A DNA stretch of 35,236 nucleotides, from NCBI GenBank assembly GCA_041177245.1, contig JBEDBL010000003.1:1-35236 (forward strand), written 5' to 3'. The notes under the pieces are model-generated. The model was not told the origin of the DNA. It searched no databases and saw only the letters and a list, made by a program, of their open reading frames with translations. This document shows, piece by piece, positions 13,435-32,937 of this stretch (position 1 is the first letter of the stretch; the number at the start of each line of letters is the position of its first letter). A program made the position numbers and the translations under genes. This stretch comes from Verrucomicrobiota bacterium (GTDB lineage Bacteria > Verrucomicrobiota > Verrucomicrobiia > Chthoniobacterales > JACTMZ01).

Positions 13435-14682
13435 ATGTCCACCGTTCTCGAGACGCCCGATGCTGCCGCCCGCACCCGTGCCGCCGAGGCTGAAGCGCGC
13501 CGCAAAGGGGAACTTCTCGGCGAGACCGTGACGCTCAACATGGGTCCGTCCCACCCGTCGACCCATGGTGTGCTGCGCATCGTGCTCGAGTTGGACGGCG
13601 AGATCATCACCAAGGCGGACGCGGACATCGGCTATCTGCACCGCGGCGACGAGAAGATCGCGGAGAACATGCAATACAACCAGTTCGTGCCCTACACGGA
13701 CCGGCTCGATTACCTCGCGCCCCTGGCCAACAACGTGGCTTACGCGCTGGCCGTGGAAAAACTGATGGGCTGGACGCTGCCGCCGCGCGGCCAAGCCATC
13801 CGCGTGATCTGCTGCGAGCTGGCGCGCATTTCCTCGCACCTGCTCGGCATCGGGGCTTACGCGATGGACATCGGCGCGATGTCCGTCTTTCTCTACACGT
13901 TCAAACACCGCGAGGTGGTTTACAATCTGACCGAGCAACTCACCGGTGCGCGTTTCACCACATCCTATACGCGGGTCGGCGGGATGACGCGCGATATCCC
14001 TCCCGGCTTCGAGCATCAGGTGCGCAATTTCATCAACGACCTGCTGCCGAGTCTCGCCGAGGTCGACAAACTGCTCACCCGCAATCCGATCTGGCTCGAC
14101 CGCACGAAAAACGTCGGCGTGATCAGCGGAGCCGATGCGATCGCCTACGGGCTCACCGGTCCCAACCTGCGAGGCTCCGGCGTGGATCACGATTTGCGCA
14201 AGGTCCACCCCTATCTCGGCTACGAGCAATACGATTTCGACGTGCCCATCGGTTCGGTGGGGGACTGCTTTGACCGCTACCTTGTGCGCATGGAGGAAAT
14301 GCGGCAGAGCGCACGGATTCTCACGCAGGCATTGGACAAACTTCCGTCGGGCCCGATCTGTGTCGAGGATCCGAAAAATATTTTGCCGAAGAAAACCGAC
14401 GTGATGACAAAGATGGAGGAACTCATCCACCAGTTCATCATCACCACGCAGGGCATCGATGCGCCGGTCGGCGAGGTTTACTTCGGGGCCGAGAACCCGA
14501 AGGGCGAACTTGGTTTTTACATTTGCAGCAAGGGCGGCGGCGTGCCGTATCGTTTGAAGATCCGCGCGCCCAGCTTCGCCAACCTCAGCATCATGCCGTC
14601 ACTCCTGCCCGGTCACTATGTGAGCGATGTTTCTGCCATCCTCGGAAGCATCGACTTCGTGATGGGCGAGTGTGACCGGTAG
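13435..14682 (+). CDS. nuoD: NADH-quinone oxidoreductase subunit D
   Basis: NMGPSHPSTHGVLR, IGYLHRG, DRLDY, ENPKGELG, RAPSF, C-terminal GSIDFVMGECDR. Confidence 0.95.
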   Translation: MSTVLETPDAAARTRAAEAEARRKGELLGETVTLNMGPSHPSTHGVLRIVLELDGEIITKADADIGYLHRGDEKIAENMQYNQFVPYTDRLDYLAPLANNVAYALAVEKLMGWTLPPRGQAIRVICCELARISSHLLGIGAYAMDIGAMSVFLYTFKHREVVYNLTEQLTGARFTTSYTRVGGMTRDIPPGFEHQVRNFINDLLPSLAEVDKLLTRNPIWLDRTKNVGVISGADAIAYGLTGPNLRGSGVDHDLRKVHPYLGYEQYDFDVPIGSVGDCFDRYLVRMEEMRQSARILTQALDKLPSGPICVEDPKNILPKKTDVMTKMEELIHQFIITTQGIDAPVGEVYFGAENPKGELGFYICSKGGGVPYRLKIRAPSFANLSIMPSLLPGHYVSDVSAILGSIDFVMGECDR

Positions 14683-15039: not shown

Positions 15040-16122
15040 TTACGGCTCGAAATCAACCCACTTGACCAAAGAAGCGAGCCGCGGGATGCCGCCGTTGTGC
15101 CAAGTCCAATGCGGATCCTGCATGCTTCCGATGGGGCAAAACCTCGATGGACGCAACGCGGCGAAGCGGTCGGCGAGGTCCTCGGTGCAGGGACAAAGCC
15201 CGACCGCGCCGATATGCGCGGCGGCCGGACCGATCGAGTTGACGAAATCTTCGGGTAACGGTTTGACGAAAATGACGCGATTGAGCGGCGAGGCGGGAAA
15301 CCAAGAGTCCTCTTCGTAGACGACGGTCCAATCGAGATTCGCTCCGCCCTCCCACAGCGCGACGCGCAAATCGCCGGCCGCACGGAAGCGGTAAGCGGCG
15401 CGCAGATTGGCGATCTCCGCTTTTTCCGCCACGTTGAGCGGACCGCGTGCATGCGAGCGGTTGAAGCGCTCCATGGACGACGCCAGTTTTTCAGCATATT
15501 CGCGGGCGAAACCCGGTTGTATCTCCCGCACATAAAAAACCTGCGGCGAAAGACACCCTTGCTGGTCGTAGAGCGAGGCATCGCGCGCTGCCCCGTCGCA
15601 TGATGCGAACGCCGGGTCATCCCACACGATGCCCAAGCTGGCCCTGTGTCCGTGGCCGACAAAGACCTGCGAGGGTGACACCAACCCACGGAAATGCGCG
15701 ATGGTTTCGTCCGATCCGTAGACGATCACCGCTTCGGCTTGCGCCAACCAAGCAGAAGGCAAATCTTCCGCGGTTTCGACGGTGCTGCGCATGGCGTCGG
15801 GCAAGCCGGCGAGAAATTCATCCACCTCGATGATGCCGCCACGCGGGAGTTTGACCAGATTGCGGCTGCCGAGGAGGAGCCCGCCGATCAACGATTGCAG
15901 CGCGGCATGCGGCGTGTTGCCGCTGACCACATGCAGGATGGTCGCCGGTGCGACCGCTTTGGTCTTGGATTTTCCGTGGTCGACCCACCGATCGAGCGCA
16001 TCGGCGTTACCTAATTCGGACCGGACCCAAGCGAGTAAATCTTCCGGTGCGGTCGGGCCGAGCAGCGCGCGGAACGGCTCCGCAGCTTCGGCGACGGCGC
16101 TGGCGCGGCCGGACGTGTTCAT
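15040..16122 (-). CDS. LuxC-like acyl-CoA reductase
   Basis: [32 protein letters not shown], catalytic-type [33 protein letters not shown] at 16122 is coupled to the upstream stop (ATGA). Confidence 0.82.
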
Positions 16123-17126
16123 CGCAGCCATTCGTCCGCAGCGCGAGAGCATCCGCGGGGCAGGGCCGAGGGATCGCGCCCGAGCAACTGGAAAGCCTCG
16201 CCGCCTTTGACCGCGAGATCCTGCGTCCTGATGCCGACCACCGATCCGACATTGGCCGCATCATAGATCAGAAGTATTCCCGTTTCGCCGTCGGCGACTT
16301 CCCGCAGCGTGACCGGATCGGCGACCACGGCGCGCGCCCAAGGTGGACCGTGGTGCAAGCCTTGCGGCCCGCGCGCGTAGAATTGCGAACTCAGCTCGGT
16401 CATGCCGTATTCATTGTAGATGTCATCCGGCGATATGCCGAGCCTGTCTCCGAACATGTCGTAAAGATCCCCGCGCGAAACATTGCGCCCGCTGCCTTTG
16501 TATCCGCCGGTTTCCATGGCGGTCGAACCGCCGGGCAACGTCAGCGTGAGATGACTTGTTTCCATCCGCTCGAACAAATTGAGAAATCCGAGTGCTGTGC
16601 CGAGCAAGCAGACCGGTTGATCGATGGACTTCAATCGTTCGATATCGATGACCCCGGCGGCAGCGATGAAGTTGTCGCGCGGCGCGAGGGTGCCGAGCAT
16701 GTGGCTTAGCGAGGAATGAGGGGATTCGTCGGGATGGGGTGCGATGACGAGGAACGGTCCGGCCGGCATATTCGCCCGACGCCACCCCTCCCGCACGACG
16801 GCTTCGTAAATTTCCAGCGTGCGGAAATGATGCTGTCCGAATCCCTCGCCGGTCGTCCCGCTGGTGCGGAAAGTTTTGACGGTATCATCGGCCGAAAAGC
16901 TGCGCAGGTCGGCATGCTTGAAGGCCGACTGCGGAACACAGGGCACATCTCGCCAGAGATCCGGTGTCTCCCCGACGCCCGATTGGCCGCAAAAAAGTCG
17001 GTAAGCGGAGTTGTTGCGGTATTGGAACGCGTGCAACCGGAGAACAGTTTCAGCGAAGTCCGCCGGGCGGTTCCCCTCGATCCACGCGAGAACCTGTGCC
17101 TCCAGATCGACGGCGGAATGTGACAT
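16119..17126 (-). CDS. LuxE-like acyl-protein synthetase (ANL-type)
   Basis: FQYRNN..YR, FRTSGTTG, METGGYKG, NEYGMTELSSQFY, TQDL, LLGR, C-terminal PRGCS (LuxE acylated-Cys motif). Likely start is ATG at 17126. Confidence 0.85.
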   Translation of the reverse strand: MSHSAVDLEAQVLAWIEGNRPADFAETVLRLHAFQYRNNSAYRLFCGQSGVGETPDLWRDVPCVPQSAFKHADLRSFSADDTVKTFRTSGTTGEGFGQHHFRTLEIYEAVVREGWRRANMPAGPFLVIAPHPDESPHSSLSHMLGTLAPRDNFIAAAGVIDIERLKSIDQPVCLLGTALGFLNLFERMETSHLTLTLPGGSTAMETGGYKGSGRNVSRGDLYDMFGDRLGISPDDIYNEYGMTELSSQFYARGPQGLHHGPPWARAVVADPVTLREVADGETGILLIYDAANVGSVVGIRTQDLAVKGGEAFQLLGRDPSALPRGCSRAADEWLR

Positions 17127-17209
17127 GGCGCTATCCTGCCATTCCCAGACGGCCGGCAAACCTCATTTTCTCCTCGCGCCCGCGGCGCGGTGCGGCAAAT
17201 CCTTGGATT

Positions 17210-20035
17210 GTGCGTTTCTGCGCGGTCATTTTTTGTCTCTCCATCGCGGTCCTGACCCCGGGCCTGCGTGCCGCCGGAGAACCCGCGGCCCCGGCAGCCG
17301 AGGCCGGCACGGCGCGCGACATCATTTTCCGCGCCGACACGGCCTACAACAACAAGCGCTACGAGGAAGCAACGGCCGGATACCGCAGGTTTCTCCAAGA
17401 CTTCGGAGCATCCTCGGAGGCTTTGCCATTTCTTCCGCATGTCCGCTACAACCTCGCGGCTTCACTGATGCAGTCGCAGAAATACGAGGATGCGCTCGAG
17501 GCGATCGAAGATGCCGGAAAAATCAAGGACATCGGTGCAAAGGAGAAGGAAGACCTCGCATTCTGGAGGGCCATTGCGCTCATGCAGACCGAAAGCTACG
17601 AGGAGGCGACGAAAGCATTGTCCGAATTCCGGGACGCTTTCCCTAAATCGGGACGCCGTCGGGACTCGGAGCTGCTTACAGGGAGTTCTCTGCTTGCCGG
17701 AGGAAAGCTCGAGGAAGCGGCAAAGGTTTTCAACGACATCCGCAAACTCCACGGGCATCCGCACGCCGGCCGCGCCACCGTGCTCGAGTTGCATTGCCTC
17801 ATCGAAACCGGAAAGGACAATGAGGCTTTGGCCTTGCTCGCCGAAGTCGGGCCGGAAATGGATTCGAAAATCAGCCAGCTTGCCACATTCCAGACCTTGG
17901 CTTTGTCGCTCGGCGGAAAATTGCTCGACGAGGACCGGCCTCGCGATGCCATCAGGGCACTGCAGAACATCTGGCCGCGCGAGCGTCTCTTGGCGCATCA
18001 AAAGCACAAGCTAGAAGAGGTTAAAACGAATCTCGCAAACATCGAGCGTCTCCCGAAACCGGACGTTTTCGCGCGCGCGCAGCAGAAGCAGTTGTTGCGC
18101 GAGGTGGAGAAAGAGCTGGCCAATCTGGAAAAAATCCCTTCCTTCGACGCATCGGTCCGTTTCCGTCTGGCCACCGCTTTCCACCGTCAGGACCGCTATC
18201 GCGAATGCGCCATGTTGCTCGACGATATGCTCCGCCAGATGGAACCAAACGATGTCGTCGAAAAAGCATCGCTAAGCGCGCTGCAAAGCTGGATGGCTAT
18301 CGAGCGCTATGACAAGGCCATCGAGGCCTCGACGGTTTTTGAAGAGCATTTCCCGTCATCGAAAAGCCTGCCACTGGTGCTTTACCTGCGCGGAACTGCC
18401 CAGCAGAAATCCGACAAATACGAAGATGCCATTGCGACATTCTCGGCCCTGCGCGAGAAATTTGGCGATTCCGAGCAGGCCCCGCGCGCCTTTTTCATGA
18501 CGGGCTTCACGCAGTTGTTGGCCGAACGCAACGAAGACGCCGCGGAGACATTCCGGCAATTCCAGGAAAAATATCCCCAGCACGATCTCTCCGAAGCCGC
18601 CAACTACTGGCGGGGGTCGGCTTTTGCTTTTGCCAAAAAATTTCCCGAGGCCCGAGAGGTTTTGGGTGCGCACGCTGCAAAGTTTTCCGAGGGGACTCTG
18701 GGTGCCTCCGCCATGTTCCGCCGGGCCTACTGCGCCCAGTCGATGAAGGATTACGCGCAGGCCGAGACCGAGCTCAGGGAGTTTCTGGGAAAATTTCCCG
18801 AGGCGGAAGAGAGCGCCGAGGCCCGCCTCATGCTCGGCGATGCGCTACTCGCTCAGGGCAAATCCGACGAGGGCAAACAGATCTACGCCTCGGTCCCCGC
18901 GGGCGCGGGACACCGGCACGAAGAGGCGCAGTTCAAGATCGCAAAAGTGCTCAAGCTTGAAGAGGACTTCGACGGCCTGAGGGCGCTCATGCGGAAATAC
19001 CTCGATCTCTATCCACAGAGCCCCATGGCGGCCGAGGCGCTCTATCACATGGGACAGTCTTGGCGCCAGCAGGAGCAGCCCGATAAAGCGGCGGCGGAAT
19101 ATTGGAAGGCCATCGGGCAATTCGGCAACGACCCGGATGCTGACTCCGTCGAGCAACTCTTCCTTGCCCTCGGGAAATATTACAAAAGCGAGTCGGAGCG
19201 GAACGATTATCTCGCCCGACTCCGCAGCTTGCGCGACGGGGCAACCGGCAAGGGCGAAAAGGTGCTTGTCGTGCGGGCTATTTGGGCCTTGGCGCAAGCT
19301 GTCAAAAAATCGGACCCGCCATTGAGTTCCGCCCTCCTCCGAGAGGCTTCCGCTTTGCTCAAGCCGGAGGAGACGAGCCCTTTGATTATCGCCGACTGCG
19401 CCGAGGCGTTGCTGTCATCGTCCGCAGACAACACCAACCCCGGAGATTCCGCGGAGCGCCGGGCCAAAGCCGCGCAACTTTACCGTGACTTGCTCAAGTG
19501 GCACCCTCGTGCCGCGCAGAAAGACAAAGCTCTTGCTGCGTTGGCCAAAGTTTCGCTCGGGGCGGGCGAGAAGGAAGTTGCGCTGGACTACTACAGACGT
19601 CTTGAGCAGGACACGCCATGGTCGCCGCTTGTCGGAGACGCTCTCATGACCCGCGCGGGCATCGAATTGGAGGCCGGACACAGCGAGCAAGCTGCGGATG
19701 CCTACAACCGTCTGCTCGCCGCAAACAGCGTGCAGGGCAAGCTCAAGGCGCAGGCTCTCCTGGCTCTCGGTGACATCGCGATGAGCAGGAACGAACCGAA
19801 ACTGGCCGTTCCATACTACCAGCGGATCTATATCCTTTACGGCAAGTGGCGGGAGACAGTCGCGCAGGCTTACCTGCGCAGCGGCGAGGCTTTCGAGCAA
19901 CTCAATGACACCGAGGCTGCGCGCAAAACGTACGAGGAACTGGCCAACAGCGAGGATTTGGGCTCCTTGCCGCAGGCGCAGACCGCGCGCGAGAAACTCA
20001 AAAAATTCACCCCCAAGGAACAGGCGCCGTCGTGA
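17210..20035 (+). CDS. Large secreted tetratricopeptide-repeat protein (BamD/CpoB-like TPR arrays)
   Basis: GTG at 17210 gives the signal peptide MRFCAVIFCLSIAVLTPGLRA, followed by many TPR units ending F/YP.S (e.g. EEHFPSS, EKYPQH, DLYPQSP). The ORF-track start at 16964 overlaps luxE and is unlikely. Confidence 0.85.
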   Translation: MRFCAVIFCLSIAVLTPGLRAAGEPAAPAAEAGTARDIIFRADTAYNNKRYEEATAGYRRFLQDFGASSEALPFLPHVRYNLAASLMQSQKYEDALEAIEDAGKIKDIGAKEKEDLAFWRAIALMQTESYEEATKALSEFRDAFPKSGRRRDSELLTGSSLLAGGKLEEAAKVFNDIRKLHGHPHAGRATVLELHCLIETGKDNEALALLAEVGPEMDSKISQLATFQTLALSLGGKLLDEDRPRDAIRALQNIWPRERLLAHQKHKLEEVKTNLANIERLPKPDVFARAQQKQLLREVEKELANLEKIPSFDASVRFRLATAFHRQDRYRECAMLLDDMLRQMEPNDVVEKASLSALQSWMAIERYDKAIEASTVFEEHFPSSKSLPLVLYLRGTAQQKSDKYEDAIATFSALREKFGDSEQAPRAFFMTGFTQLLAERNEDAAETFRQFQEKYPQHDLSEAANYWRGSAFAFAKKFPEAREVLGAHAAKFSEGTLGASAMFRRAYCAQSMKDYAQAETELREFLGKFPEAEESAEARLMLGDALLAQGKSDEGKQIYASVPAGAGHRHEEAQFKIAKVLKLEEDFDGLRALMRKYLDLYPQSPMAAEALYHMGQSWRQQEQPDKAAAEYWKAIGQFGNDPDADSVEQLFLALGKYYKSESERNDYLARLRSLRDGATGKGEKVLVVRAIWALAQAVKKSDPPLSSALLREASALLKPEETSPLIIADCAEALLSSSADNTNPGDSAERRAKAAQLYRDLLKWHPRAAQKDKALAALAKVSLGAGEKEVALDYYRRLEQDTPWSPLVGDALMTRAGIELEAGHSEQAADAYNRLLAANSVQGKLKAQALLALGDIAMSRNEPKLAVPYYQRIYILYGKWRETVAQAYLRSGEAFEQLNDTEAARKTYEELANSEDLGSLPQAQTAREKLKKFTPKEQAPS

Positions 20036-20940
20036 AAAAGACTTTCCCGCTGTTTTTCCTCGCCGCGACTGTTTGCGCGCAGGACGTCATCCATTACACG
20101 GACGGCACCATGCGGACCAACAAGATTGCCGCGGCGGAAGGAGCGATGCTCCGCATCGTCATTCCTTCGCCCGTGCCCGGCCAACCCGGAGGCTCGACGC
20201 TGATCCCGCGAGCGGGCATATCGAAAATTATTTTCGGACCCGATGCGGTGCTCGATGCCGTTGCCGCGCAACCGCTGCCCGGTTCGGTCGCGTCCTCCCG
20301 CTCCCGCTGGCAGAGTCTCCAGCCCTTGCTGGGCACGCCCGAATCTCGCGCCGCTGAAGCGGGATGTCTGCTCGGGGAGATACTTCTGCAAGCGGAGGAT
20401 CCCGCCAAGCATGAGGAGGCCATGGCAATTTTCACGGAAGTCGAAAAAGGTGCTTGGAAGCTCGAGGATCGCCAGCGCGCCGCGCGAGGCCGGCTCGGCG
20501 TCATGATCAAGCAAGGAAAACTCGACGAGGCGTCCCAACAAGCGGAGGAAATGGAACGAACGGCTGCCGATCCTGAACTTGTCATCGACACAAGATTGTT
20601 GCTCGCTCGTGCGAGATCGGAGGAACTCAAAAAACTCCTCAAAGATAATCCTCGGTGGAGCGAAGATCCGCCGGTGATCATGGGACGAGCACGGCTTCTG
20701 AACGAGGGTTTGGATTATGCCCTTTATCCCTTCCTTTTTTACGGGACAAAGCACCGGCAGGCCGCGCAGGGACTCTGGACGGCGCATGAGCTGTACGCTG
20801 CCTGCGACGAGGACGAACGCGCCCGTGAAACTTTGCAAGATATCGTGGAAATCTATCCCGATACCTCTTTTGCGGCGGATGCGAAAGCCGCCTTGGCCGA
20901 GACGCCCGGCAAGCAAAGCAAGGTCCAAGCCGATGAATAA
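20032..20940 (+). CDS. Secreted protein with small N-terminal beta domain and C-terminal TPR-like helices
   Basis: GTGA overlap with the upstream gene, signal peptide ending VCA, QDVIHYTDG start, helical repeats, and C-terminal ARETLQDIVEIYPDTSFA. Confidence 0.75.
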   Translation: MKKTFPLFFLAATVCAQDVIHYTDGTMRTNKIAAAEGAMLRIVIPSPVPGQPGGSTLIPRAGISKIIFGPDAVLDAVAAQPLPGSVASSRSRWQSLQPLLGTPESRAAEAGCLLGEILLQAEDPAKHEEAMAIFTEVEKGAWKLEDRQRAARGRLGVMIKQGKLDEASQQAEEMERTAADPELVIDTRLLLARARSEELKKLLKDNPRWSEDPPVIMGRARLLNEGLDYALYPFLFYGTKHRQAAQGLWTAHELYAACDEDERARETLQDIVEIYPDTSFAADAKAALAETPGKQSKVQADE

Positions 20941-20986
20941 GGACCCCATGCACCTTGTTGCCGGTGCTTCCAGCTTTGCCGTGCCA

Positions 20987-21002
20987 CGCGCGATATCGCG
21001 CG
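20987..21002. repeat. Perfect 16-bp palindrome in the intergenic region before exbB
   Basis: cgcgcgatatcgcgcg is its own reverse complement. Confidence 0.6.
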
Positions 21003-21075
21003 AATTTCTTCCCGCGGCCCGACTTGGCAGGCTTGCGGTTGTCTGTTAGCGAAAAACATATCCACTGCAGCACCT

Positions 21076-21915
21076 ATGAACATCCTCACCACCAAACCCC
21101 GTCCTTCGGACAAAATCCCGAGCTTTGGAAAAGGCATCCTTCCACTCCTGCTCGCCGCGTTTGCTTTCGCGTTCGTTTTCAGCCCCTGCAACGCGAGCGC
21201 CATGGGCGTGGCATCAGACAAGAGCCTCCTGGATCTCTACAAAGAGGGAGGGCCCATCATGCACCTGATCGCGCTTTGCTCCGTGGCGGTCAGTTCGCTC
21301 GGTTGCTACTGCTTCCTTATGTTCCGCAAAGCAAAAATGATGCCCCCCGATCTCGTTGCCGAGTTGGACGGTTTGATGACGCAGCGCGATTTGCAGACGG
21401 CTTACCAGGTCTGCAAGGCCAAGCCATGCGTTCTCACCACCATCCTTTCGGGTGCGTTGACCAAGGCCAATTTCGAGCGGGACATGTTCAACAAGACCTC
21501 GATGGAGAACTCGGTCGCCGACGACTGTTTCCGCGAGGAGAGCAAAATGATGGTGGTGGTGAACTACCTCAACACCTTTGCCGTGCTGGCGCCTATGATC
21601 GGATTGCTCGGCACGGTGAGCGGCATGATCACGAGCTTCAGCGCGCTGACGGCAGGCAAAGCGGAGGCCACCGACCTGGCCAAGGGCATCGGAGAGGCAC
21701 TCATCGCGACAGGCGGCGGTCTGCTTCTGGCGATCCCAGCGATGTTTCTCTATTTCTTCTTCCGTGGTTTGTTGACTTCGAACATGGCGGACATCCACAA
21801 GGCTCTATCGCACATGCTCGACCTCTTCACGGGCGAGGCGCACGGGAATCCGCCTTCCGCCGCGCAACCCGAGGTTTACGCGGCCGAAGATTACCAGGAG
21901 CCTGCTACCGAGTAA
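21076..21915 (+). CDS. exbB: MotA/TolQ/ExbB proton-channel protein
   Basis: EGGPIM first TM entry, LAPMIGLLGTVSGMI, LAKGIGEALIATGGGL, AIPA; N-terminal signal-like extension. Confidence 0.9.
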   Translation: MNILTTKPRPSDKIPSFGKGILPLLLAAFAFAFVFSPCNASAMGVASDKSLLDLYKEGGPIMHLIALCSVAVSSLGCYCFLMFRKAKMMPPDLVAELDGLMTQRDLQTAYQVCKAKPCVLTTILSGALTKANFERDMFNKTSMENSVADDCFREESKMMVVVNYLNTFAVLAPMIGLLGTVSGMITSFSALTAGKAEATDLAKGIGEALIATGGGLLLAIPAMFLYFFFRGLLTSNMADIHKALSHMLDLFTGEAHGNPPSAAQPEVYAAEDYQEPATE

Positions 21916-21921
21916 GACAAG

Positions 21922-22344
21922 ATGTCCGAAGGACGCCGCCGCATTCGCCGGGTAGCACACGAGGAGGTGGGTTTGCAGATTGCACCCATGATCGACGTTA
22001 CCCTGTTGCTCCTCTTTTTCTTCATGTTGGCGGGCAAAATTACCAAAGCGGAGAAGATGATGGACATCAAAGTCCCCGTGGCGGCCACCGGGAAAATACC
22101 GGAAGATGAAGGAAACCGCGACATCGTCAACATCGACAGCCAAGGGCAGTTGTTCAGCGGCAGCAAGCCAATGACAACCAAAGAACTCTCCGTGCACCTC
22201 AAGCAGAGATTCAAAGATTATCCGCCGCTCAAACTCTACGTGCGCGCGGACGCCGGGACTCCCGGCAAAAGAATCAAAGAAATCATGGCCATGGCCAGCG
22301 AGGCCGGTGCGATCGAAGTCATCTTCGGGGTGATACAAAAATGA
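21922..22344 (+). CDS. exbD: ExbD/TolR family protein 1
   Basis: IAPMIDVTLLLLFFFM with the conserved TM Asp; periplasmic VRAD motif. Confidence 0.9.
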   Translation: MSEGRRRIRRVAHEEVGLQIAPMIDVTLLLLFFFMLAGKITKAEKMMDIKVPVAATGKIPEDEGNRDIVNIDSQGQLFSGSKPMTTKELSVHLKQRFKDYPPLKLYVRADAGTPGKRIKEIMAMASEAGAIEVIFGVIQK

Positions 22345-22781
22345 GGCGTATCGAGCATCCCCAGATCGAGTTGCAGATTGCCCCGATGATCGACGTCTGC
22401 TTCCTGCTGCTCTTTTTCTACATTCTCACTTCAAAGCCGGTGAAACCGGAGGCGGATGTCTCCATGACCTTGCCCGGAACCGTGGCGCAAGAGCAGTCGC
22501 TCGACATTCCCGATGAGCAAAGGGTCGCCATCCAAGACAACGGGCAGATTGTCCTCAATGACCTTCCGCTCGACAAAGCCGACAGCAAAGATCTTCCGGC
22601 TCTGCTCGCCACCCTGAAGCGGTTCAAAGAGTCGACCGACGCCAACAAAAGCCAGGCTCTGGTCACCGTCGATGTCGCCGACCGTGCGGTGCACCAGCGT
22701 GTGATTGACGTCCTCAATGCCTGCGCCCAGGCCGGCATACAGGGAGTCACTTTTGCCGGTCCATCGGGAGAAGAAGAATGA
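22341..22781 (+). CDS. exbD: ExbD/TolR family protein 2
   Basis: IAPMIDVCFLLLFFYI with the conserved TM Asp; VIDVLNAC..AGI; ATGA overlap with the previous gene. Confidence 0.9.
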   Translation: MRRIEHPQIELQIAPMIDVCFLLLFFYILTSKPVKPEADVSMTLPGTVAQEQSLDIPDEQRVAIQDNGQIVLNDLPLDKADSKDLPALLATLKRFKESTDANKSQALVTVDVADRAVHQRVIDVLNACAQAGIQGVTFAGPSGEEE

Positions 22782-23884
22782 CAACTTCGCTCGAGGAAAC
22801 ACCGCCCGCGCAGAAAAGCCGCCTGAGGAGGATCATCATCATGGTGATACTCGCGAGCATCGCCATCCATATCGTGGCAGGCATCGTGGCCGGGGTGGTC
22901 ATTGTTGCGCGCTACTTCGCGGAGCCGCCCGCGGAGTTCAAGGCGGTCAAAGATATCAGGATACCCGCGCAGGATCGGGAGCACCGCATGAACATGGCGG
23001 CATACGAGGGGGGAGCTGCCAAACCCGCTTTCACCGATAAAATGGCGTCCACAAGGCCGACGGATTTTGCGCTCCCTGACATTCCGCAAATGCCGATGGA
23101 TGCGGTGACAGAGTTTGACCCGAACGGGGTCGTGGCCGATCAAATCGCCGGTATCGGGAGCGGGTCGGGAATGGGATCGGGGTTCGGATCTGGCACTGGA
23201 GGCGGCGGTAAGGGAGGTTCCGCGGTCAACTTCTTCGGCATTTCCGACACGGCCACGCGAGTTGTTATCGTGGTTGACGTATCGGACACGATGTTCGACC
23301 GGCAACCGGGAAAATTTGATGCGGTCAGGCAGGAGGCGATGAAACTGGTGAAAGGACTGGGGATCAACACCCTGTTCGATTTGATCATCTACGAGGGCGG
23401 ATCAGTCGCCATGTTTCCCGAAGTGCAGCCGGCCACGGAGGCAAATAAGCAGAAAGCAGTGGAATGGATCCAAAAAGTGGACGGAGGTGGCGACAAGCGC
23501 GGCGCTTCCTACCGCGGCACCTACAGCAAAATGGGCACCGGTCTCTACGAGGGCGGCGGCACGCGCACCGACACGGCTCTCAAGCAGGCGCTTTTGCTGC
23601 GCCCGAGCACGATATTTCTGATCACCGACGGCGAGATGAGCCGCTTGGGTGGAGCGGCAGGAGCTCAAGATGAAAAAGACGGCGAAAGGCAAGGTTCCGG
23701 AATCAGCGAAGAGGAACTCCTGGATATTGTCGAAGAGGGACAAAAGAAGCTCGAGGAACCGGCTCGTATCCACGTGGTTCACTTTCTCACCAAGGCGGCG
23801 CGTTCGGAGGAGGAGAAAGTTTTGAGGACGATCGCGCGCCGTAATGACGGACGCTTCAAGCAGGTCAAGGCTGAGGATTACTGA
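22778..23884 (+). CDS. Single-pass membrane protein with TonB/TolA-like anchor, Pro/Gly linker and C-terminal vWA domain
   Basis: TM helix with S27-I-A-I-H31, Pro-containing then Gly/Ser-rich linker, vWA motifs VVIVVDVSDTM, GGTRTDTAL and IFLITDG; ATGA overlap. Confidence 0.8.
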   Translation: MTTSLEETPPAQKSRLRRIIIMVILASIAIHIVAGIVAGVVIVARYFAEPPAEFKAVKDIRIPAQDREHRMNMAAYEGGAAKPAFTDKMASTRPTDFALPDIPQMPMDAVTEFDPNGVVADQIAGIGSGSGMGSGFGSGTGGGGKGGSAVNFFGISDTATRVVIVVDVSDTMFDRQPGKFDAVRQEAMKLVKGLGINTLFDLIIYEGGSVAMFPEVQPATEANKQKAVEWIQKVDGGGDKRGASYRGTYSKMGTGLYEGGGTRTDTALKQALLLRPSTIFLITDGEMSRLGGAAGAQDEKDGERQGSGISEEELLDIVEEGQKKLEEPARIHVVHFLTKAARSEEEKVLRTIARRNDGRFKQVKAEDY

Positions 23885-23943: not shown

Positions 23944-24666
23944 ATGGTGGAAATCTTGGAGAAACTTCTCCTCCTGCAGGAGCGCGACCAGAAATTGCAG
24001 GCGTTTCTCCACGAGATCAACGGGGTGCCTGGCGAAAAAGCCTCCCTGCAGAAAGAGCTGGATGCCGCGCAGCGCACTCTGGAGAACGACAAGGCCCGCG
24101 CCACGCAGATCGAAGTGGAGCGCAAGCGGCTTGAAGTCGAGGCCGACGGCAAGCGCGCGCAGATCGCGAAATACCAGACCCAGCAGCTGGAAACGCGCAA
24201 GAACGAGGAATATTCCGCTTTGAAACACGAGATCGAGCGGGCCGAAAAAGACATCACAGCCATCGAGGACCGCGAACTCGAACTCATGCAGGAGCTCGAA
24301 GATCTCAAGCCGCTCATCGCGGCGGCCGACCAGAAATACAGCTCCGAGAAAAGCCGCGTGGCCGTGCTGATGAAAACCGCCGACGAAAAAGTCGGCGTGT
24401 TGCAGGGCCGGGCCGACGAGCTGAAAGTGGAACGCGACGCCGTCGCCGCGGAAGTCCGGGCGGGGGACGAGGATCTGTTCGAACTCTACGAAAAGCTTTT
24501 CCGCTCAAAAGCCGGTCGCGCCATTGTCCCTCTCGAGGGCAACCATTGCTCGGGTTGCCACATGACGGTGACACCCGCGACCCTGCGTGATGCCAAAGTC
24601 GGCTCCAGCGTCGTCTCCTGCGAGCAGTGCGGACGGATCGTCTACGTGCTGCCGGAGTATGCTTAG
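23944..24666 (+). CDS. Coiled-coil protein with C4-type zinc ribbon (DUF164 / CT398 / HP0958-like)
   Basis: Long coiled coil with NEEYSALKHEI, ending in CSGCH...CEQCGRIVY. Confidence 0.85.
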   Translation: MVEILEKLLLLQERDQKLQAFLHEINGVPGEKASLQKELDAAQRTLENDKARATQIEVERKRLEVEADGKRAQIAKYQTQQLETRKNEEYSALKHEIERAEKDITAIEDRELELMQELEDLKPLIAAADQKYSSEKSRVAVLMKTADEKVGVLQGRADELKVERDAVAAEVRAGDEDLFELYEKLFRSKAGRAIVPLEGNHCSGCHMTVTPATLRDAKVGSSVVSCEQCGRIVYVLPEYA

Positions 24667-24669
24667 AAA

Positions 24670-26547
24670 TTAGTGCCCGTTGGAGCCGTTTGCACCGGCA
24701 CCTCGCGGCTCGAATTCCTCGCGGAACTTCCCGACGAAACTCTGCGTCGGCCAAGAGCAGGCCTCCCCGAAGGCGCACACCGTCCGCCCGGCGATGTTGT
24801 CCGCAATGCCAACGAGTTGCTTGGCGTCGGTCGGTTTTATGTCGCCGTGGAGCATGCGCGTGGTCACTTTGGACATCCACAAACTGCCTTCGCGGCAAGG
24901 TGTGCATTGGCCGCAGCTTTCGTGCGCGTAGAAATCGTTGATGTTGTTGAGAACCCAGAGCATGTCGCGCGAATCGTCGAGGATCATGACACCGGCGCTG
25001 CCGATCATGGATCCCGCCAGGGCGAGCGAGTTGGCGTCCATGACGACGTCCATCAAACCGACCTCGACCGTTGTCTCGGCGCCGTCGGGCCCTTTACGCT
25101 TCATTTTGAATGTTTCGCCGGCGCGCAAAACTTTCGCCGAACTTCCGCCGGGGATGATCGCTTTGAGTTTGCGTCCCGGCTTCATCCCGCCGCAAAGGTC
25201 GATCAACTGGCCGACTGTGACCTGTCCGCATCCCAGTTCGTAGAAATCGGGGTTCTGCACGTCGCCGCTGATGCAAAGCGTGCGCGTGCCACCGTCTCCC
25301 GGCGAACCGAGTTTGGCGAATTCGGCGCCGCCCATGGCGATGATGTGTTTCACGTGGCAGAGGGTTTCCACGTTGTTGACGATGGTCGGACAGTTGTAGA
25401 GGCCGAATACCGCGGGGAAATAAGGCGGCTTGATGCGGGGGTAGGGACGTTTGCCTTCGAGCGATTCGAGCAGGCTCGTCTCCTCGCCGCAAATATAGGC
25501 GCCTGCGCCCTGGTGCACATAGATGTCGCAATCGAAGCCGGAGCCGAGGACGTTTTTGCCGATGAGTCCGCGCTCGCGTGCTTCGGCGATGGCCTTGGTG
25601 ACGATGCGTGCTGCTTCGGGGAATTCGCACCGGATGTAGATGTAGCTGAGGTGCACATTGAGCGCCCAGGCGGCGATCATCATGCCTTCGAGCAACTGGT
25701 GCGGGTCCTCGTGCAGGATGTAGCGGTCTTTGAAAGTGCCCGGCTCCGACTCGTCGCCGTTGACTACGAGATAATGCGGCTTTCCGTCCTCGCGTTTGAT
25801 GAAACTCCACTTCACGCCGCATGGGAATCCGGCGCCGCCGCGGCCGCGCAAGTTCGAGGCTTTAACTTCGGCCACGATGTCGTCCGGCTTCATCTGCAGC
25901 GCCTTTTTCAGAGACTCGTATCCGCCGTGGCGCACGTAGCAATCGATCGAGGTATCGTAGTCCTCGCGCCCGACGTTCCGGAGGATCAGCCTCCGTTCCG
26001 AGGAATGCGGCGCGCGGACCGTTTTACGGTAGCCTGTATCACGCCCGAGCAACGATGCCGCGTCGTCCGGTGCGATGCGTTCATGGAGATCGTCGCCGAC
26101 CATGGCCACGGGCGCGCTGCCGCAGCTGGCCAGACACTCGACGAATTCGATGGTGCAGCTTCCGTCTGAAGCGGTGAACTCGTGCGCGTGGTCGTCGTGT
26201 CCGCCGTTCCCGCCAGCCGCGCGGCAAAGGTTTTTGTGCAGCTCGTAGGACCCCGCCATGGCGCAGGAGAGCGTGCGGCAGACGCGGATGACTTTTTTTC
26301 CGGGGGGCGTCTGGCGGAACCACGGATAGAAGGTGACCAGCTCGAGGATGTTGATCGGCTCGAGCTCGAGACGCCGCGCGATCCAGTCGACGCCGCTGTC
26401 GTCCACGTAGCCGAAATGGTTCTGCCAGAGGTGGAGCAGGGGGAGGGAGGCGCTTCTTTTGGAGACGGGATAGTGGGTGACCGCCTCGTCGATGGCGGCC
26501 AGAAGCCCTTGTGGCAGGTTGTCGGCTTGGCGGGACGCGTTGGTCAT
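24670..26547 (-). CDS. nuoF: Fused NADH-quinone oxidoreductase subunits E and F (NuoE-NuoF)
   Basis: NuoE part: SASLPLLH, VTFY, CRTLSC, CLASC. NuoF part: LRGRGGAGF, NGDESEPGTFKD, GAGAYICGEETSLLESLEG, CGQCTPCREG, VCAFG. One continuous frame; likely start is ATG at 26547. Confidence 0.92.
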   Translation of the reverse strand: MTNASRQADNLPQGLLAAIDEAVTHYPVSKRSASLPLLHLWQNHFGYVDDSGVDWIARRLELEPINILELVTFYPWFRQTPPGKKVIRVCRTLSCAMAGSYELHKNLCRAAGGNGGHDDHAHEFTASDGSCTIEFVECLASCGSAPVAMVGDDLHERIAPDDAASLLGRDTGYRKTVRAPHSSERRLILRNVGREDYDTSIDCYVRHGGYESLKKALQMKPDDIVAEVKASNLRGRGGAGFPCGVKWSFIKREDGKPHYLVVNGDESEPGTFKDRYILHEDPHQLLEGMMIAAWALNVHLSYIYIRCEFPEAARIVTKAIAEARERGLIGKNVLGSGFDCDIYVHQGAGAYICGEETSLLESLEGKRPYPRIKPPYFPAVFGLYNCPTIVNNVETLCHVKHIIAMGGAEFAKLGSPGDGGTRTLCISGDVQNPDFYELGCGQVTVGQLIDLCGGMKPGRKLKAIIPGGSSAKVLRAGETFKMKRKGPDGAETTVEVGLMDVVMDANSLALAGSMIGSAGVMILDDSRDMLWVLNNINDFYAHESCGQCTPCREGSLWMSKVTTRMLHGDIKPTDAKQLVGIADNIAGRTVCAFGEACSWPTQSFVGKFREEFEPRGAGANGSNGH

Positions 26548-26674
26548 GAACGGCAATTAGTCCTTCAAGGATACGCCCTCTTCAAGAAAAACGATGCTTT
26601 GGCCGGTCCTGCCGCACTTGCCAGCCCTCGGAGGGTCTGCGAGAATACTAGGGAACGAAAGAAATGATCCAACT

Positions 26675-27737: not shown

Positions 27738-28868
27738 GTGTCTGCCGTCCCCGAACATTCTGCCGTCGAAGTCGTCGAGGATCACTCTTCCGCCGTCCAT
27801 GCCCTCCACCATGTGGATCAATACCTTGCCATCGGCAAGGAGTCGGGCGCTTCGGATATCCATCTGACCGTGAACCTGCGGCCCACTTGGCGCCGCTTCG
27901 GAACGCTTGAACCCATCTGGTTGCAGGCGGACAAACTCAGTGCGGCGGATACCGAGAGGCTCGCCATGGGTTTCCTCGATGACGCGCAGAAAAAACTCCT
28001 GGAGGAGCGGGGCGATGTCGATTTTGCATACACCAACTCCGAGGGTCGATACCGCACGAGCGTGGTGCGTCATCGCCTCGGCTACGATCTTGTTTTCCGC
28101 ATCATCCAGACCAATGTCCGCACGATGGATGATCTCGGTCTGCCGCCCCAACTGAAGCTTCTCACGCAATACCAGAACGGCTTGGTGCTGGTCACCGGTT
28201 CGGTCGGAAGCGGCAAAAGCACGACTTTGGCCTCGTTGGTGGAGGAAGTGAACCGGACGCGTCACGAACACATCATCACTCTCGAAGACCCCATCGAGTA
28301 TCTCTTCACCCCGCAGGGCTGCCAGGTGAACCAGCGCGAGGTGCACACGCACACCGAGTCGTTCGGCGCGGCGCTGCGCGGGGCTTTGCGCGAAGACCCG
28401 GATGTCATCATGGTGGGCGAAATGCGCGACCTCGAGACGATCTCGCTGGCCATCACGGCGTCGGAGACGGGCCACCTTGTGCTCGGCACGCTGCACACGG
28501 CGAACGCCGCCCGAACGCTCGACCGTTTGCTCGACGTGTTTCCGGTCGACCAACGAGAGCAGATTCGCATCATGGTGAGCGAATCTTTGCGCGGAATCAT
28601 CTCGCAGCAACTTGTCCCGCGAGCCGACGGAATGGGTCGCGCTCTGGCCATCGAAATCCTCGTGAATACCCCGGCCGTGGCGAACGTTATCCGCGAGGCG
28701 AAGACTTTCATGTTGCCGGGTATCATCCAGACCGGGAAGAAAATGGGAATGAAGCTGATGGATGATTCGTTAGCCGAACTTTTTGGAGCAGGTCTCATTT
28801 CCGGAGACGAGGCCGTCGCGCGCGCCGAACAAAAACCCGCCATGAAACAACTTTGCGGGGTCGCCTGA
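27738..28868 (+). CDS. pilT: PilT/PilU family type IV pilus ATPase 1
   Basis: ASDIHL, GSVGSGKST, EDPIE, ALREDPDVIMVGEMRD, GTLHT, AVANVIRE. Confidence 0.88.
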   Translation: MSAVPEHSAVEVVEDHSSAVHALHHVDQYLAIGKESGASDIHLTVNLRPTWRRFGTLEPIWLQADKLSAADTERLAMGFLDDAQKKLLEERGDVDFAYTNSEGRYRTSVVRHRLGYDLVFRIIQTNVRTMDDLGLPPQLKLLTQYQNGLVLVTGSVGSGKSTTLASLVEEVNRTRHEHIITLEDPIEYLFTPQGCQVNQREVHTHTESFGAALRGALREDPDVIMVGEMRDLETISLAITASETGHLVLGTLHTANAARTLDRLLDVFPVDQREQIRIMVSESLRGIISQQLVPRADGMGRALAIEILVNTPAVANVIREAKTFMLPGIIQTGKKMGMKLMDDSLAELFGAGLISGDEAVARAEQKPAMKQLCGVA

Positions 28869-28872
28869 TCCC

Positions 28873-29970
28873 ATGTCTCGAATCGACCAACTTTTCGAGG
28901 TTTTGATCAACGCGCGCGCGTCCGATCTTCACTTGGCCGAGGGGCAGCCTCCGAAGATTCGCCGGCACGGCGATGTGATCGCCATCCGTGAGGAATTGCT
29001 GACTGCGGACGAGATGAATTACATGCTCAGCGAGATCTGCACGCCGAAAAACTGGGAACGATTCCAGGCCAAGGGTGACCTCGATTTCGCCTACGAGATG
29101 AACGAGGACAGCCGCTTCCGCTGCAACTACTTCAAGCAGGTGCACGGGCTTGGCGCGGTCTTCCGTCTGATCCCGACGCGCATCGCCACGATCGACGAAC
29201 TTGGTCTTCCGCCGGTCATCAAGGAATTCGGTCACCTGCGCGGCGGGCTTGTTCTTGTCACCGGTCCGACGGGATCGGGCAAAAGTACTTCGCTGGCCGC
29301 GCTCATCGACTATATCAACAGCAATTTTTCGCGCCACATCGTGACGATCGAGGAACCGATCGAGTTCGTGCACTCGAACAAAAACAGCATCATCACCCAG
29401 CGCGAGGTTCCGGAGCATTCCACGACCTTTCCCGCCGGGCTGAAAGCCGCGCTCCGCGAGGACAGCGACATCGTGCTCGTCGGCGAGATGCGCGATCTGG
29501 AAACCATCTCGCTGGCGCTGACCGCCGCCGAAACCGGTTTGCTCGTGTTCGGAACGTTGCACACGAACAACGCGCGCAAAACAGTCGACCGTATGATCGA
29601 TGTGTTTCCTTCCGACCAGCAGGCGCAGGTTCGCACCATGCTCGCAGCCTCGCTGCGCGGGGTGGTCGCGCAGCTCCTCCTCAAGCGGCATGACGGCGGC
29701 GGCCGCATAGCGGTGAATGAAATCCTCGTGGTCAACAGCGCGGTGGCGGCGATCATCCGCGAAGGTGCCACGCAAAAACTGCAGGATGCAATCGTGGGTG
29801 GAAAGTCTCAGGGTATGCAGTTCATGGACGATGCGATTTGGGCCCAGCTTCAGCAGGGCCGCGTCTCGCCCCACGAGGCTTTCATGAAGGCCATCGACAA
29901 GAGCCGCTTCAAGGCCTTCCTGCCGGAGGAGGAAGCGCAGTTGGCCAATTCGGCCGGGGCTGCCGCGTAG
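28873..29970 (+). CDS. pilT: PilT/PilU family type IV pilus ATPase 2
   Basis: ASDLHL, RFRCNYF, GPTGSGKST, EEPIE, ALREDSDIVLVGEMRD, GTLHT, AVAAIIRE. Confidence 0.9.
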   Translation: MSRIDQLFEVLINARASDLHLAEGQPPKIRRHGDVIAIREELLTADEMNYMLSEICTPKNWERFQAKGDLDFAYEMNEDSRFRCNYFKQVHGLGAVFRLIPTRIATIDELGLPPVIKEFGHLRGGLVLVTGPTGSGKSTSLAALIDYINSNFSRHIVTIEEPIEFVHSNKNSIITQREVPEHSTTFPAGLKAALREDSDIVLVGEMRDLETISLALTAAETGLLVFGTLHTNNARKTVDRMIDVFPSDQQAQVRTMLAASLRGVVAQLLLKRHDGGGRIAVNEILVVNSAVAAIIREGATQKLQDAIVGGKSQGMQFMDDAIWAQLQQGRVSPHEAFMKAIDKSRFKAFLPEEEAQLANSAGAAA

Positions 29971-30045: not shown

Positions 30046-32250
30046 ATGAAACCGACTGTCCCCGCCGAAGAACTGGCGGCCTTTCTCGAGGCCCGGCACG
30101 GCGATCCGTTCCACACCCTCGGCATGCGGTGCGTGCGGGATTTCACGGTCGTGCGAGTTTTCCGCCCGGACTGCGCCTCAGTCCAAGTGGTGGATGCCAC
30201 CAACCGTGCCCGCGTCTTTGCGGCGGCGAAAATCCACGCGGACGGATTTTTCGAGGCGGTGCTTCCCAAGGGGAGCAGCGAGTTTCCCTACCTGCTGAAG
30301 CTGAGGAGCCACGGCGGTGACGAGTGGGAGCAACGCGACCCTTATTCTTTCAGGCGCGTTCTCGGTGAAATGGACGTTCACCTTTATGCCGAGGGCAACC
30401 ATTGGGACATCTACCGGAAATTGGGCGCCCACTTGTGCGCGGTGGAAGGTGTGACCGGTGTCAGCTTCAGCGTGTGGGCGCCGAATGCTCAGCGCGTTAG
30501 CGTGGTGAGCGATTTCAACAACTGGGACGGCCGTGTGCACGTAATGCGCAAGTTGCTCGGCAGCGGCATCTGGGAAATTTTCATACCCGGCATAGAGGAG
30601 GGTGCGCATTACAAATTCGAAATCAAAGGGTGCCACGGGGATGTTGTCCTCAAAAGCGATCCATTCGCGTTCTACGGCCAGCATGGATTGCAGACGGCTT
30701 CCATCGTTTACGACCTCGACCGCTTCCAATGGTCGGACGGGGGATGGATGGAATACCGCGCCAAGCAGGCATGGCACAAAAAGCCGGTCAGCATCTACGA
30801 GGTTCACCTCGGTTCATGGCAACGCATGGCGGAAGACAACAACCGCCCCCTCAGCTACATCGAGCTTTCGCACCGCCTGATTCCCTACTGCCTCGAGATG
30901 GGATTCACCCACATCGAACTCATGCCGGTGGCCGAGCATCCGTTCGACGGTTCATGGGGATACCAGGTAGCGGGCTATTACGCGCCGACGAGCCGGTTCG
31001 GCAACCCCGACGAGTTCCGTCATTTCGTCGACAATTGCCACAAAGCCGGTATCGGCGTGATCCTCGATTGGGTGCCGGCGCATTTCCCGAAAGACGCACA
31101 CGGGTTGGCGAATTTCGACGGCACACACCTTTACGAGCATTCTGATCCGCGTCAGGGCGAACATCGCGACTGGGGAACCTACATTTTCAACTACGGGCGC
31201 AACGAAGTGCGGAATTTCCTCATCGCCAACGCGCTTTTCTGGTTCGAGCAATACCACATCGACGGCGTGCGGGTGGATGCGGTCGCGTCGATGCTTTACC
31301 TCGACTACTCGCGCGAGGGCGGGCAGTGGGTGCCCAACTGCTACGGAGGACGGGAAAACCTGGAAGCAATTTATTTCCTCAAGCGTTTCAACGAACTGAG
31401 CTACGAGCGTTTCCCCGGGATCATCACCATCGCTGAGGAGTCGACGGCTTGGCCGGGTGTCTCGCGTCCGACGTATCTCGGCGGGCTCGGCTTCGGCTTC
31501 AAGTGGAACATGGGATGGATGCACGACTTCCTCCACTACATGAGCCTCGACCCGATTTACCGGCGCTATCACCAGGGCAGCATCACCTTCTCGCTGCTCT
31601 ACGCGTTCCATGAGCATTTCATCCTCGTGCTCAGCCACGACGAGGTGGTGCACGGCAAGGGGGCTTTGCTCGGCAAAATGCCCGGCGACATGTGGCAGAA
31701 GTTCGCCAACCTGCGCATGCTCTATGGTCTCATGTGGGCCCACCCCGGGAAAAAACTTTTGTTCCAAGGCGGCGAATTCGGCCAGTGGGACGAATGGCGT
31801 TACAACCAGAGCCTTGACTGGCACCTCACTCAGTTTCCGCATCATGCCGGCCTTTCCCGCCTCGTTCAGCACCTCAACGACATCTACAAAAATTATCCAG
31901 CCTTCTACGAATTGGATGACACCGACGCGGGCTTCGAGTGGATCGATTTCCATGACTCGGACAACAGCGTGGTCGCCTTCCTGCGCCGCTCGGTCAGTGG
32001 ACAGAGTATTTTGTTTGTCATGAATGCCACACCTGTGGTCCGAGGGGGCTACCGGATTGGCGTGCCGTCTGCCGGTTTTTATCGGGAAATCCTCAACACG
32101 GACGCCGAAACCTATGGCGGCAGCAACGTGGGCAACCGCGGCGGCCTAACTTCAGAGGCCACCCCTTGGCAGGGCCGTGAGCACTCGATCATGGTTGAAC
32201 TTCCTCCGCTGGGTTTGGTGGGCTTTGTGCTCGAGGGAGAGAAATTATAA
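30046..32250 (+). CDS. glgB: 1,4-alpha-glucan branching enzyme
   Basis: [50 protein letters not shown]; likely start is ATG at 30046. Confidence 0.97.
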
Positions 32251-32266
32251 GGCTGGATTTCTCCTG

Positions 32267-32294
32267 TTGACTTCCCCTGTTCCCGTGGTAAACC
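32267..32294 (+). promoter_or_regulatory. Possible sigma70-type promoter of the pilin gene
   Basis: TTGACT (32267-32272), 16 nt, then TAAACC preceded by TGG (extended -10-like). The -10 match is weak. Confidence 0.3.
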
Positions 32295-32307
32295 TTGAGT
32301 GCCTTTT

Positions 32308-32925: not shown

Positions 32926-32937
32926 CTCAGTTTACTC

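Follow-up and report, generated by a model that had tools for sequence, protein, structure and literature searches.

Six genes at positions 17210-23884 on the forward strand of a 35,236-nt contig from a freshwater Chthoniobacterales bacterium (Verrucomicrobiota; contig JBEDBL010000003.1 of assembly GCA_041177245.1) most probably encode a motor-driven vWA force transducer system of the kind proposed in 2025 for bacteria of the PVC (Planctomycetes, Verrucomicrobia, Chlamydiae) group, in which the motor would pull via a vWA head; a probability of roughly 0.75 is given to this reading. The whole contig is referred to here as the window. It is contig C3 of a genome of 2.79 Mb in 283 contigs that is 86% complete; its closest relatives by protein and by DNA bear the label Chthoniobacterales, and the sequencing runs carrying the stretch are freshwater metagenomes. 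SHLS-type vWA force transducers encoded beside TolQR-like motors were described by Williams-Jones et al. (2025; Mol Biol Evol 42:msaf138, PMC12204202), according to whom the transmembrane helix of these proteins carries the SHLS motif, the linker is disordered and includes a "motor box", and the domain at the C-terminus is of the vWA type. There, the seed locus is from Tichowtungia aerotolerans, the spread covers Proteobacteria, Planctomycetes, Verrucomicrobia, Bacteroidetes and Rhodothermaeota, and AlphaFold 3 models dock the helix to the motor by means of a His that is conserved. Membership of the window's system in this kind is judged by the described architecture and synteny. The preliminary description of this DNA had taken the operon for a candidate undescribed machine with a motor class distinct from Ton and Tol. 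The distinctness was supported, and the novelty was not, because the same arrangement is already given in PMC12204202.

The six genes are co-oriented and tightly spaced: neighbours share 4 nt in three cases and are 6 nt apart in one, and 135 nt lie between TPR2 and ExbB. All of them were found where the preliminary description had placed them, and its account of the six proved correct:

17210-20035, forward strand: TPR1, 941 aa from a GTG at 17210, signal-peptide-like N-terminus, TPR matches in Pfam
20032-20940, forward strand: TPR2, 302 aa, secreted, predicted beta domain and TPR-like solenoid
21076-21915, forward strand: ExbB, 279 aa, PF01618 at E 6.3e-24, extra N-terminal hydrophobic segment
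21922-22344, forward strand: ExbD1, 140 aa, PF02472 at E 2.7e-20, transmembrane Asp kept
22341-22781, forward strand: ExbD2, 146 aa, PF02472 at E 1.9e-17, transmembrane Asp kept, conserved insertion
22778-23884, forward strand: vWA protein, 368 aa, anchor helix, disordered linker with a Gly-rich stretch, C-terminal vWA domain
22832-22912, forward strand: predicted anchor helix of the vWA protein, residues 19-45, with Ser27-x3-His31
23255-23881, forward strand: predicted vWA domain, residues 160-368, with metal ion-dependent adhesion site (MIDAS) residues Asp167, Ser169, Thr171, Thr262 and Asp284

The clustering of these genes is far from chance. A pattern scan with the vWA alignment over one genome per species returned 25 loci, of which 20 carry the full order TPR1-TPR2-ExbB-ExbD1-ExbD2-vWA. 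The remaining loci are one with five of the six genes, cut by a contig end (L028), a 1.2-kb contig with ExbD2-vWA (L024), a locus with motor and vWA genes and no TPR match (L026), a partial vWA-like match only (L033) and a chance match (L034). In the phylum as a whole, the vWA profile matched 105 of the 401 sampled Verrucomicrobiota genomes, belonging to 62 of 185 genera. Of the 29 short phylum loci, 22 have an ExbD2-like gene as the immediate upstream neighbour of the vWA gene, one has a different order, and six have no motor gene within 1.5 kb. Twenty loci of about 14 kb were also inspected, hand-picked and with three known beforehand as atypical; a large TPR gene, the motor and the vWA gene occur together in 17 of them, in the clean six-gene order in 13 and as order variants in L077, L086, L088 and L090, and the cassette is absent from L074, L075 and L079. 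The preliminary description had made its reading depend on a conserved neighbourhood, and the gene order was indeed kept, both in the close relatives and, for the core, in the 17 of 20 loci across the phylum. Five loci of a clade with longer vWA proteins of 437-472 aa (L078, L080, L084, L087 and L089) have two further co-oriented genes after the transducer, one encoding about 165-200 aa without a Pfam match and the other a PEGA-domain protein of 556-776 aa, which may be parts or partners of the system. In a complete genome of another genus without a vWA match (L169, G210:C1:638000-657000), an ExbB-ExbD-ExbD cluster is followed, past about 1 kb without a convincing open reading frame (ORF), by a TPR protein of 1101 aa and a TPR-like one of 347 aa, which are the same parts in a different order.

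As judged from its anchor motif and its predicted structure, the vWA protein is built like TonB and TolA. Ser27 and His31 of its single transmembrane helix are invariant in all 13 close homologues; among 21 proteins from across the phylum, the His is kept in 19 and the Ser in 14, and of the two that lack the His, one (L074) is an orphan without motor genes in its vicinity and the other (L086) belongs to a locus that is rearranged. The same Ser-x3-His spacing is found in TonB (SVCIH; S16, H20) and TolA (SAVLH) of E. coli K-12. In the AlphaFold model, a helix at residues 10-48 (predicted local distance difference test, pLDDT, of about 80) is followed by a stretch at 53-152 predicted to be disordered (pLDDT <50) and a folded part at 160-368. 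The linker is thus predicted to be disordered, yet its motifs are strongly conserved across the phylum; the available text of PMC12204202 lacks a sequence definition of the motor box with which these conserved low-pLDDT motifs could be aligned. A Foldseek search of the PDB with the folded part returned 228 matches at E<=1e-3, of which all those listed are vWA domains, headed by ITIH4/ITIH1 (inter-alpha-inhibitor heavy chain) vWA at E 7e-9, BatB 3ibs at 4e-7 and integrin I domains. All 21 sequences keep the MIDAS residues D167, S/T169, S/T171 and D284, and 16 of them keep T262. Against PDB sequences, the A1 profile gave one weak match. Against 1.84 billion cluster representatives, the vWA profile gave 2604 matches at E<=1e-3, falling to 449 at E<=1e-10 and to 83 at E<=1e-30, and the ESM Atlas clusters are nameless or vWA-named, mostly from Verrucomicrobiota and one from Planctomycetota. 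One 805-aa representative (P0183) carries SAM and Ser/Thr kinase domains N-terminal to an anchor-linker-like stretch, its residues 417-556 matching the anchor and linker of the vWA profile at E 9e-37.

The motor proteins belong to the ExbB/ExbD family and miss the NCBIfam equivalog cut-offs by a wide margin: TolQ 63 bits (cut-off 221), ExbB 54 (206) and TolR 41 (127), with the ExbD equivalog score also far under its cut-off. A search of PDB sequences with the window's ExbB scored an ExbB chain at 43 bits and TolQ at 41 bits, so that the attempt to assign the protein to ExbB or TolQ by this means failed. Two of its stretches, GTVxG and EALxAT..AIPA, can be aligned with E. coli ExbB and TolQ, and in ExbD1 the Asp of APMIDV falls on the Asp of the E. 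coli proteins ExbD and TolR. The observation in the preliminary description that both ExbD proteins retain the transmembrane Asp is borne out by this alignment, and the residue is kept in all 18 verrucomicrobial ExbD1/ExbD2 proteins aligned, the window's two included. ExbD1 and ExbD2 are 26% identical to each other. Across the phylum, ExbD1 orthologues share 29-55% identity and ExbD2 orthologues 41-60%, and the crosswise values are 19-25%. The two separate orthologue groups therefore point to a duplication older than the sampled part of the phylum, and ExbD1 and ExbD2 probably form a heterodimer.

A maximum-likelihood tree of the ExbB family was built from 52 proteins, which comprise all six MotA/ExbB-family proteins of the window's genome, 17 further vWA-linked proteins from the 14-kb loci of other genomes (18 vWA-linked rows with the window's own), paralogues of five other genomes (the 30 of 42 matches that had a locus, five duplicate loci being dropped) and, as outside references, E. 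coli TolQ, ExbB and MotA. The 18 vWA-linked ExbB proteins form one group with a support of 100/99 (ultrafast bootstrap/approximate likelihood-ratio test, aLRT) and in 200 of 200 bootstrap trees, in a sample where most vWA-linked rows were found through the vWA gene and are not independent. E. coli TolQ and ExbB fall outside it, together with eight single-ExbD ExbB proteins. No vWA-unlinked ExbB falls inside the clade among the placed paralogues of the six genomes, the 12 matches without a locus not being placed as such (at least one of them, the vWA-linked ExbB of G243, entered the tree through L076). The distinctness of this motor from the Ton and Tol motors, as claimed in the preliminary description, is supported by the separate ExbB clade, by the missed equivalog cut-offs and by the presence of the vWA protein in the TonB position. 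On contig C4 of the same genome (L070:7372-10396) there is a second ExbB-ExbD-ExbD cluster, whose ExbB the tree places close to the vWA-linked clade. It is followed by a 368-aa protein (P0127) whose N-terminal transmembrane segment lacks Ser-x3-His, whose long linker is of the (Thr-Pro)n type and whose C-terminal domain has no Pfam match; this protein may be another non-TonB transducer.

TPR1 matches TPR_6 (E 8.5e-31), TPR_16, YfiO and other Pfam families, and it scores 202 bits against TIGR02795 tol_pal_ybgF of NCBIfam (cut-off 90) over seven stretches. Because these stretches are separate, TPR1 is taken to be, as shown by its sequence, a chain of about seven CpoB/YbgF-like TPR modules, a concrete tie to Tol-Pal biology, in which CpoB acts with TolA. 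Alignments of TPR1 homologues begin at residue 1-2 in L013, L014 and L025, and large TPR proteins of about 880-1050 aa occupy its position across the phylum. TPR2 has no match in the Pfam scan and a weak YbgF C-terminal match in NCBIfam (E 5.5e-4). Its model, based on 17 homologues (pLDDT 90.1, predicted template modelling score 0.83), consists of a five-strand beta domain at residues 18-67 and a TPR-like helical solenoid at 72-290, and a structure search of the PDB gave weak matches only, to TPR proteins (BamD, PilF, LapB, LGN). The signal peptides of its homologues end in Ala-x-Ala before Gln/Asp-Asp and no Cys is conserved, which argues for a soluble periplasmic protein. Proteins in the TPR2 position of distant loci have weak TPR matches. 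A prediction of the complex between vWA residues 50-368 and mature TPR2 (19-302), run twice and without controls, scored 0.00 both times, which speaks neither for nor against such a complex.

The genes might instead be an ordinary accessory cluster of the Ton or Tol system, whose motor would use a TonB or TolA encoded elsewhere, with the vWA and TPR genes as mere neighbours. The CpoB/YbgF-like modules of TPR1 would fit such a cluster, and so would the content of the genome, which holds six MotA/ExbB-family genes, three TonB_C-like matches (of which two exceed the cut-off) and, on contig C105, a TolB-Pal-like pair made of a PD40 propeller gene and, after it, an OmpA-domain gene. The preliminary description was right that the operon's surroundings hold no such partner: TonB_C, TonB-dependent receptor, TolB and Pal domains are absent from the 10 ORFs around the operon and from a selection of 41 ORFs outside it that are 130 aa or longer. 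It had also held that its reading would fall if the motor worked through a conventional TonB or TolA, and this second ground of refutation fails as well: two of the three TonB_C-like matches are proteins with Ser-x3-His anchors of their own, each beside its own ExbB-ExbD pair (C29, C33). Moreover, a vWA protein with the Ser-x3-His anchor takes the TonB position across the phylum, the vWA-linked ExbB proteins stand apart in the tree, the scores against the TolQ, TolR, ExbB and ExbD equivalogs are far too low, and neither a Plug nor a TolB_N domain was found in the 86%-complete genome. An accessory cluster of this sort is thus very unlikely.

Membrane-anchored vWA and TPR proteins are also encoded together in Bat (Bacteroides aerotolerance) operons, and a Bat-like envelope operon standing beside a motor by chance would account for the BatB structure and the "aerotolerance-related membrane protein" 4jdu among the top Foldseek matches. 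A vWA fold match is generic by itself, given the 228 found, and the Pfam scans of the window's ORFs contain no MoxR-type ATPase or DUF58. The ExbB-ExbD-ExbD linkage is kept throughout the phylum and the His-bearing anchor helix is TonB/TolA-like, which leaves a chance neighbourhood with a very slight probability. A third explanation is an Agl-Glt-like motor for gliding or adhesion, in which one TolQ-like and two TolR-like subunits drive a surface adhesin system. This is the subunit composition of the Myxococcus AglRQS motor, and the window's one-plus-two architecture fits it. A gliding role is suggested as possible in the available text of PMC12204202, and the vWA adhesin CglB acts in Myxococcus gliding (PMC9946355, as far as seen in its available text). 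The latter protein is described there as an outer-membrane lipoprotein, whereas the window's vWA protein is predicted to be anchored in the inner membrane; no Glt-like components were seen in the window, where no search aimed at them was made. We consider this explanation quite improbable as well.

Several observations weigh against the assignment to motor-driven vWA force transducers. The window protein keeps just two of the four SHLS positions, with Ala38 in place of the Leu and Ile42 in place of the second Ser. The mean pLDDT of the whole vWA-protein model is 61.8, and the Pfam VWA scores lie under the curated cut-offs, so the vWA call rests on the predicted fold and the MIDAS residues. Members of the family without a motor gene nearby occur in L037, L041, L043, L045, L047, L049, L074 and L079, of which L074 also lacks the anchor His. 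The TPR proteins are tied to the machine by synteny, the absence of Plug comes from a metagenome-assembled genome at 86% completeness, and the TolB-like/Pal-like pair together with the TonB-like proteins elsewhere in the genome makes cross-talk possible. Finally, the system is known here from sequences and predicted structures, and the proposal in PMC12204202, according to its available text, itself rests on synteny and AlphaFold 3 models.

If the six genes do form a motor-driven vWA force transducer, its working can be pictured as follows. By analogy with Ton and Tol, an ExbB pentamer would surround an ExbD1/ExbD2 heterodimer, in which both subunits carry the proton-binding Asp seen in the alignment, and proton flow would turn this motor. 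The vWA protein would dock on the outside of the motor by the Ser27-x3-His31 motif of its anchor helix, and its linker, predicted to be disordered, would span the periplasm. The integrin-like vWA head might then bind a partner through a metal ion held at its conserved MIDAS residues. With the head bound, the motor would therefore pull on the partner, the force passing along the linker to whatever the MIDAS site holds. The secreted TPR1 and TPR2 may serve as periplasmic scaffolds or adaptors of the same machine.

The likeliest role, tentatively proposed, is that a large ligand at the surface or in the periplasm, for example a glycan or glycoprotein, is captured or imported, since vWA and PA14-like heads, both of ligand-binding kinds, interchange in the cassette (see below) and no Plug was found. 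Tol-like tethering of the envelope or division-linked envelope work appears less likely, and is kept under consideration because of the CpoB-like modules in TPR1. Surface movement or adhesion is improbable, and what is left falls to some other role. In Akkermansia, mul1A (amuc_0544) is called a "mucin transport gene" in the available part of PMC12570417, and MUL1 is said to "resemble" the Sus system in that of PMC13174399; neither passage lists the genes of MUL1, whose kinship with the cassette would be conjectural.

Identities among the loci looked mosaic, and therefore trees were built for 22 of them. Conflicting trees were obtained for the TPR genes, for the motor trio and for the vWA gene (the window versus L010-L032, L073 and L076). 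In the motor-trio tree, the window, L010, L027, L031 and L076 are split from the other 17 loci with an aLRT of 100, and in the TPR1 and vWA trees the window and L010 fall inside the other group. In approximately unbiased (AU) tests, which were applied to quick trees and to a clade picked from the motor tree and not in advance, the motor clade was rejected by the vWA columns (difference in log-likelihood 146, p-AU 3.5e-6) and by the TPR1 columns (616, p-AU 1.2e-9). These results suggest that parts of the cassette have been exchanged between relatives, the TPR pair, the motor trio and the transducer having separate histories.

The head of the transducer also appears to be exchangeable. Eleven cluster representatives match the vWA profile at the anchor and linker only (positions about 1-150), and seven of them have PA14 matches in the C-terminal half, three above the cut-off. 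A query with one such protein, P0170, matched 103 of the 401 genomes at E<=1e-10, a count that includes cross-matches to vWA proteins via the shared N-terminus. Among the 30 loci returned with it, three hold vWA proteins, and ExbD genes lie immediately upstream in four of the remaining 27. When these four were fetched at about 14 kb (L157-L160, from G300, G099, G239 and G092), all of them carried a PA14-like protein in the transducer position of the same cassette. P0170, P0190, P0194 and P0278 are proteins of this sister kind. Pfam PA14 is above its cut-off in two of the four proteins, and the second gene of the cassette has TPR matches in all three cases tested. The G300 genome, which is of the same order as the window's genome, has no vWA match in the profile search of the 401 genomes. 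In an alignment of the vWA and PA14 kinds (A3), H31, F54, P103, G141 and F153-G154 are invariant. A literature search pairing the PA14 domain with ExbD found no related description. Further PA14-headed copies occur singly or as tandem pairs (L129, L132, L142, L150). Given the head swap and the separate histories of the parts, the head therefore likely binds a variable ligand. A further picture, which we regard as possible but rather doubtful, is that of a modular proton-powered "grappling" machine with one arm, exchangeable heads (vWA, PA14-like), a dedicated heteromeric motor and swappable parts, which would pull in large glycans or glycoproteins in lineages without TonB-dependent receptors.

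The 135-nt gap between TPR2 and ExbB holds one further element:

20987-21002, forward strand: GC-rich perfect palindrome followed by a T-rich tail

It is possibly an internal terminator or regulatory site, and the case is weak because such terminator-like sites total 12, against 10.2 +/- 3.7 after shuffling; scans for promoters and for terminators gave no excess over shuffled sequence.

Directly downstream of the operon (23944-24666, forward strand) lies a CdsZ/CT398-like gene for a coiled coil and zinc ribbon. It trails the operon in 17 of the 25 loci of the vWA query, sometimes past a 1.2-kb insert, and was rejected as a part of the system on account of its absence from the phylum-wide loci; its adjacency is probably local synteny only. 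Next after it, on the reverse strand (24670-26556), is a fused NuoE-NuoF-like gene of 628 aa, and a lone NuoD-like gene (Complex1_49kDa) is located at 13435-14682 (forward strand); in the window these two are separate from each other and from other nuo genes. On its upstream side, the operon is immediately preceded by a reverse-strand gene pair (15040-17159) for a LuxC-like acyl-CoA reductase and a LuxE-like acyl-protein synthetase. Two adjoining T2SSE-family ATPase genes (376 and 365 aa; 27738-29970, forward strand) lie 4 kb downstream of the operon and are PilT/PilU-like by Pfam family only. At 32001-33000, the G+C fraction is 0.50 compared with about 0.60 elsewhere, and this region covers a 208-aa ORF (32299-32925) without a Pfam match.

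Summarizing, the window holds no new kind of system, and it provides a clean and well-conserved example from a freshwater Chthoniobacterales genome. What is added here is the CpoB-like array of TPR1, the apparently separate histories of the parts, the PA14-headed sister cassettes and the genome in which no Plug was found. For long, Ton and Tol were the only known pulling-type routes of energy from the inner membrane to the outer envelope in diderm bacteria. Transducers with adhesion-type heads, as a third family, would extend this pulling principle, and they could explain the handling of large substrates or the upkeep of the envelope in PVC bacteria without TonB-dependent receptors. The residues defined for mutation are His31, the MIDAS residues Asp167, Ser169 and Asp284, and the Asp of each ExbD.

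The window's system shares with Ton an ExbB/ExbD-family motor with the transmembrane Asp, and a transducer with Ser-x3-His and a long flexible linker in the gene position of TonB. It differs from Ton in that the transducer has no TonB_C, there are two ExbD paralogues, ExbB and ExbD stay under the equivalog cut-offs, and the genome, within its 86% completeness, yielded no receptor Plug domain. The likeness to Tol-Pal with CpoB extends to the motor family, the anchor motif and a CpoB/YbgF-type periplasmic TPR protein encoded alongside, but the head is a predicted vWA domain and not TolA domain III, the TolB-like and Pal-like genes are on contig C105, and about seven CpoB-like modules are joined in a single 941-aa chain. 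With Agl-Glt the likeness is by subunit count, and the differences are that no Glt components were identified and that the window's vWA protein is predicted to be anchored in the inner membrane. The PA14-headed sister cassettes are much closer, having the gene order TPR1, TPR-like, ExbB, ExbD1, ExbD2, transducer, together with the anchor His and the linker motifs, and differ in the C-terminal head, which is PA14-like instead of vWA. Compared with the SHLS-type systems as given in the available text of PMC12204202, the window's cassette has two TPR genes where one is named there, its TPR1 is resolved as a CpoB/YbgF-like array, and its transducer keeps only the Ser and His of SHLS; the single transmembrane helix with a putative docking His, the predicted disordered linker and the vWA head are common to both.

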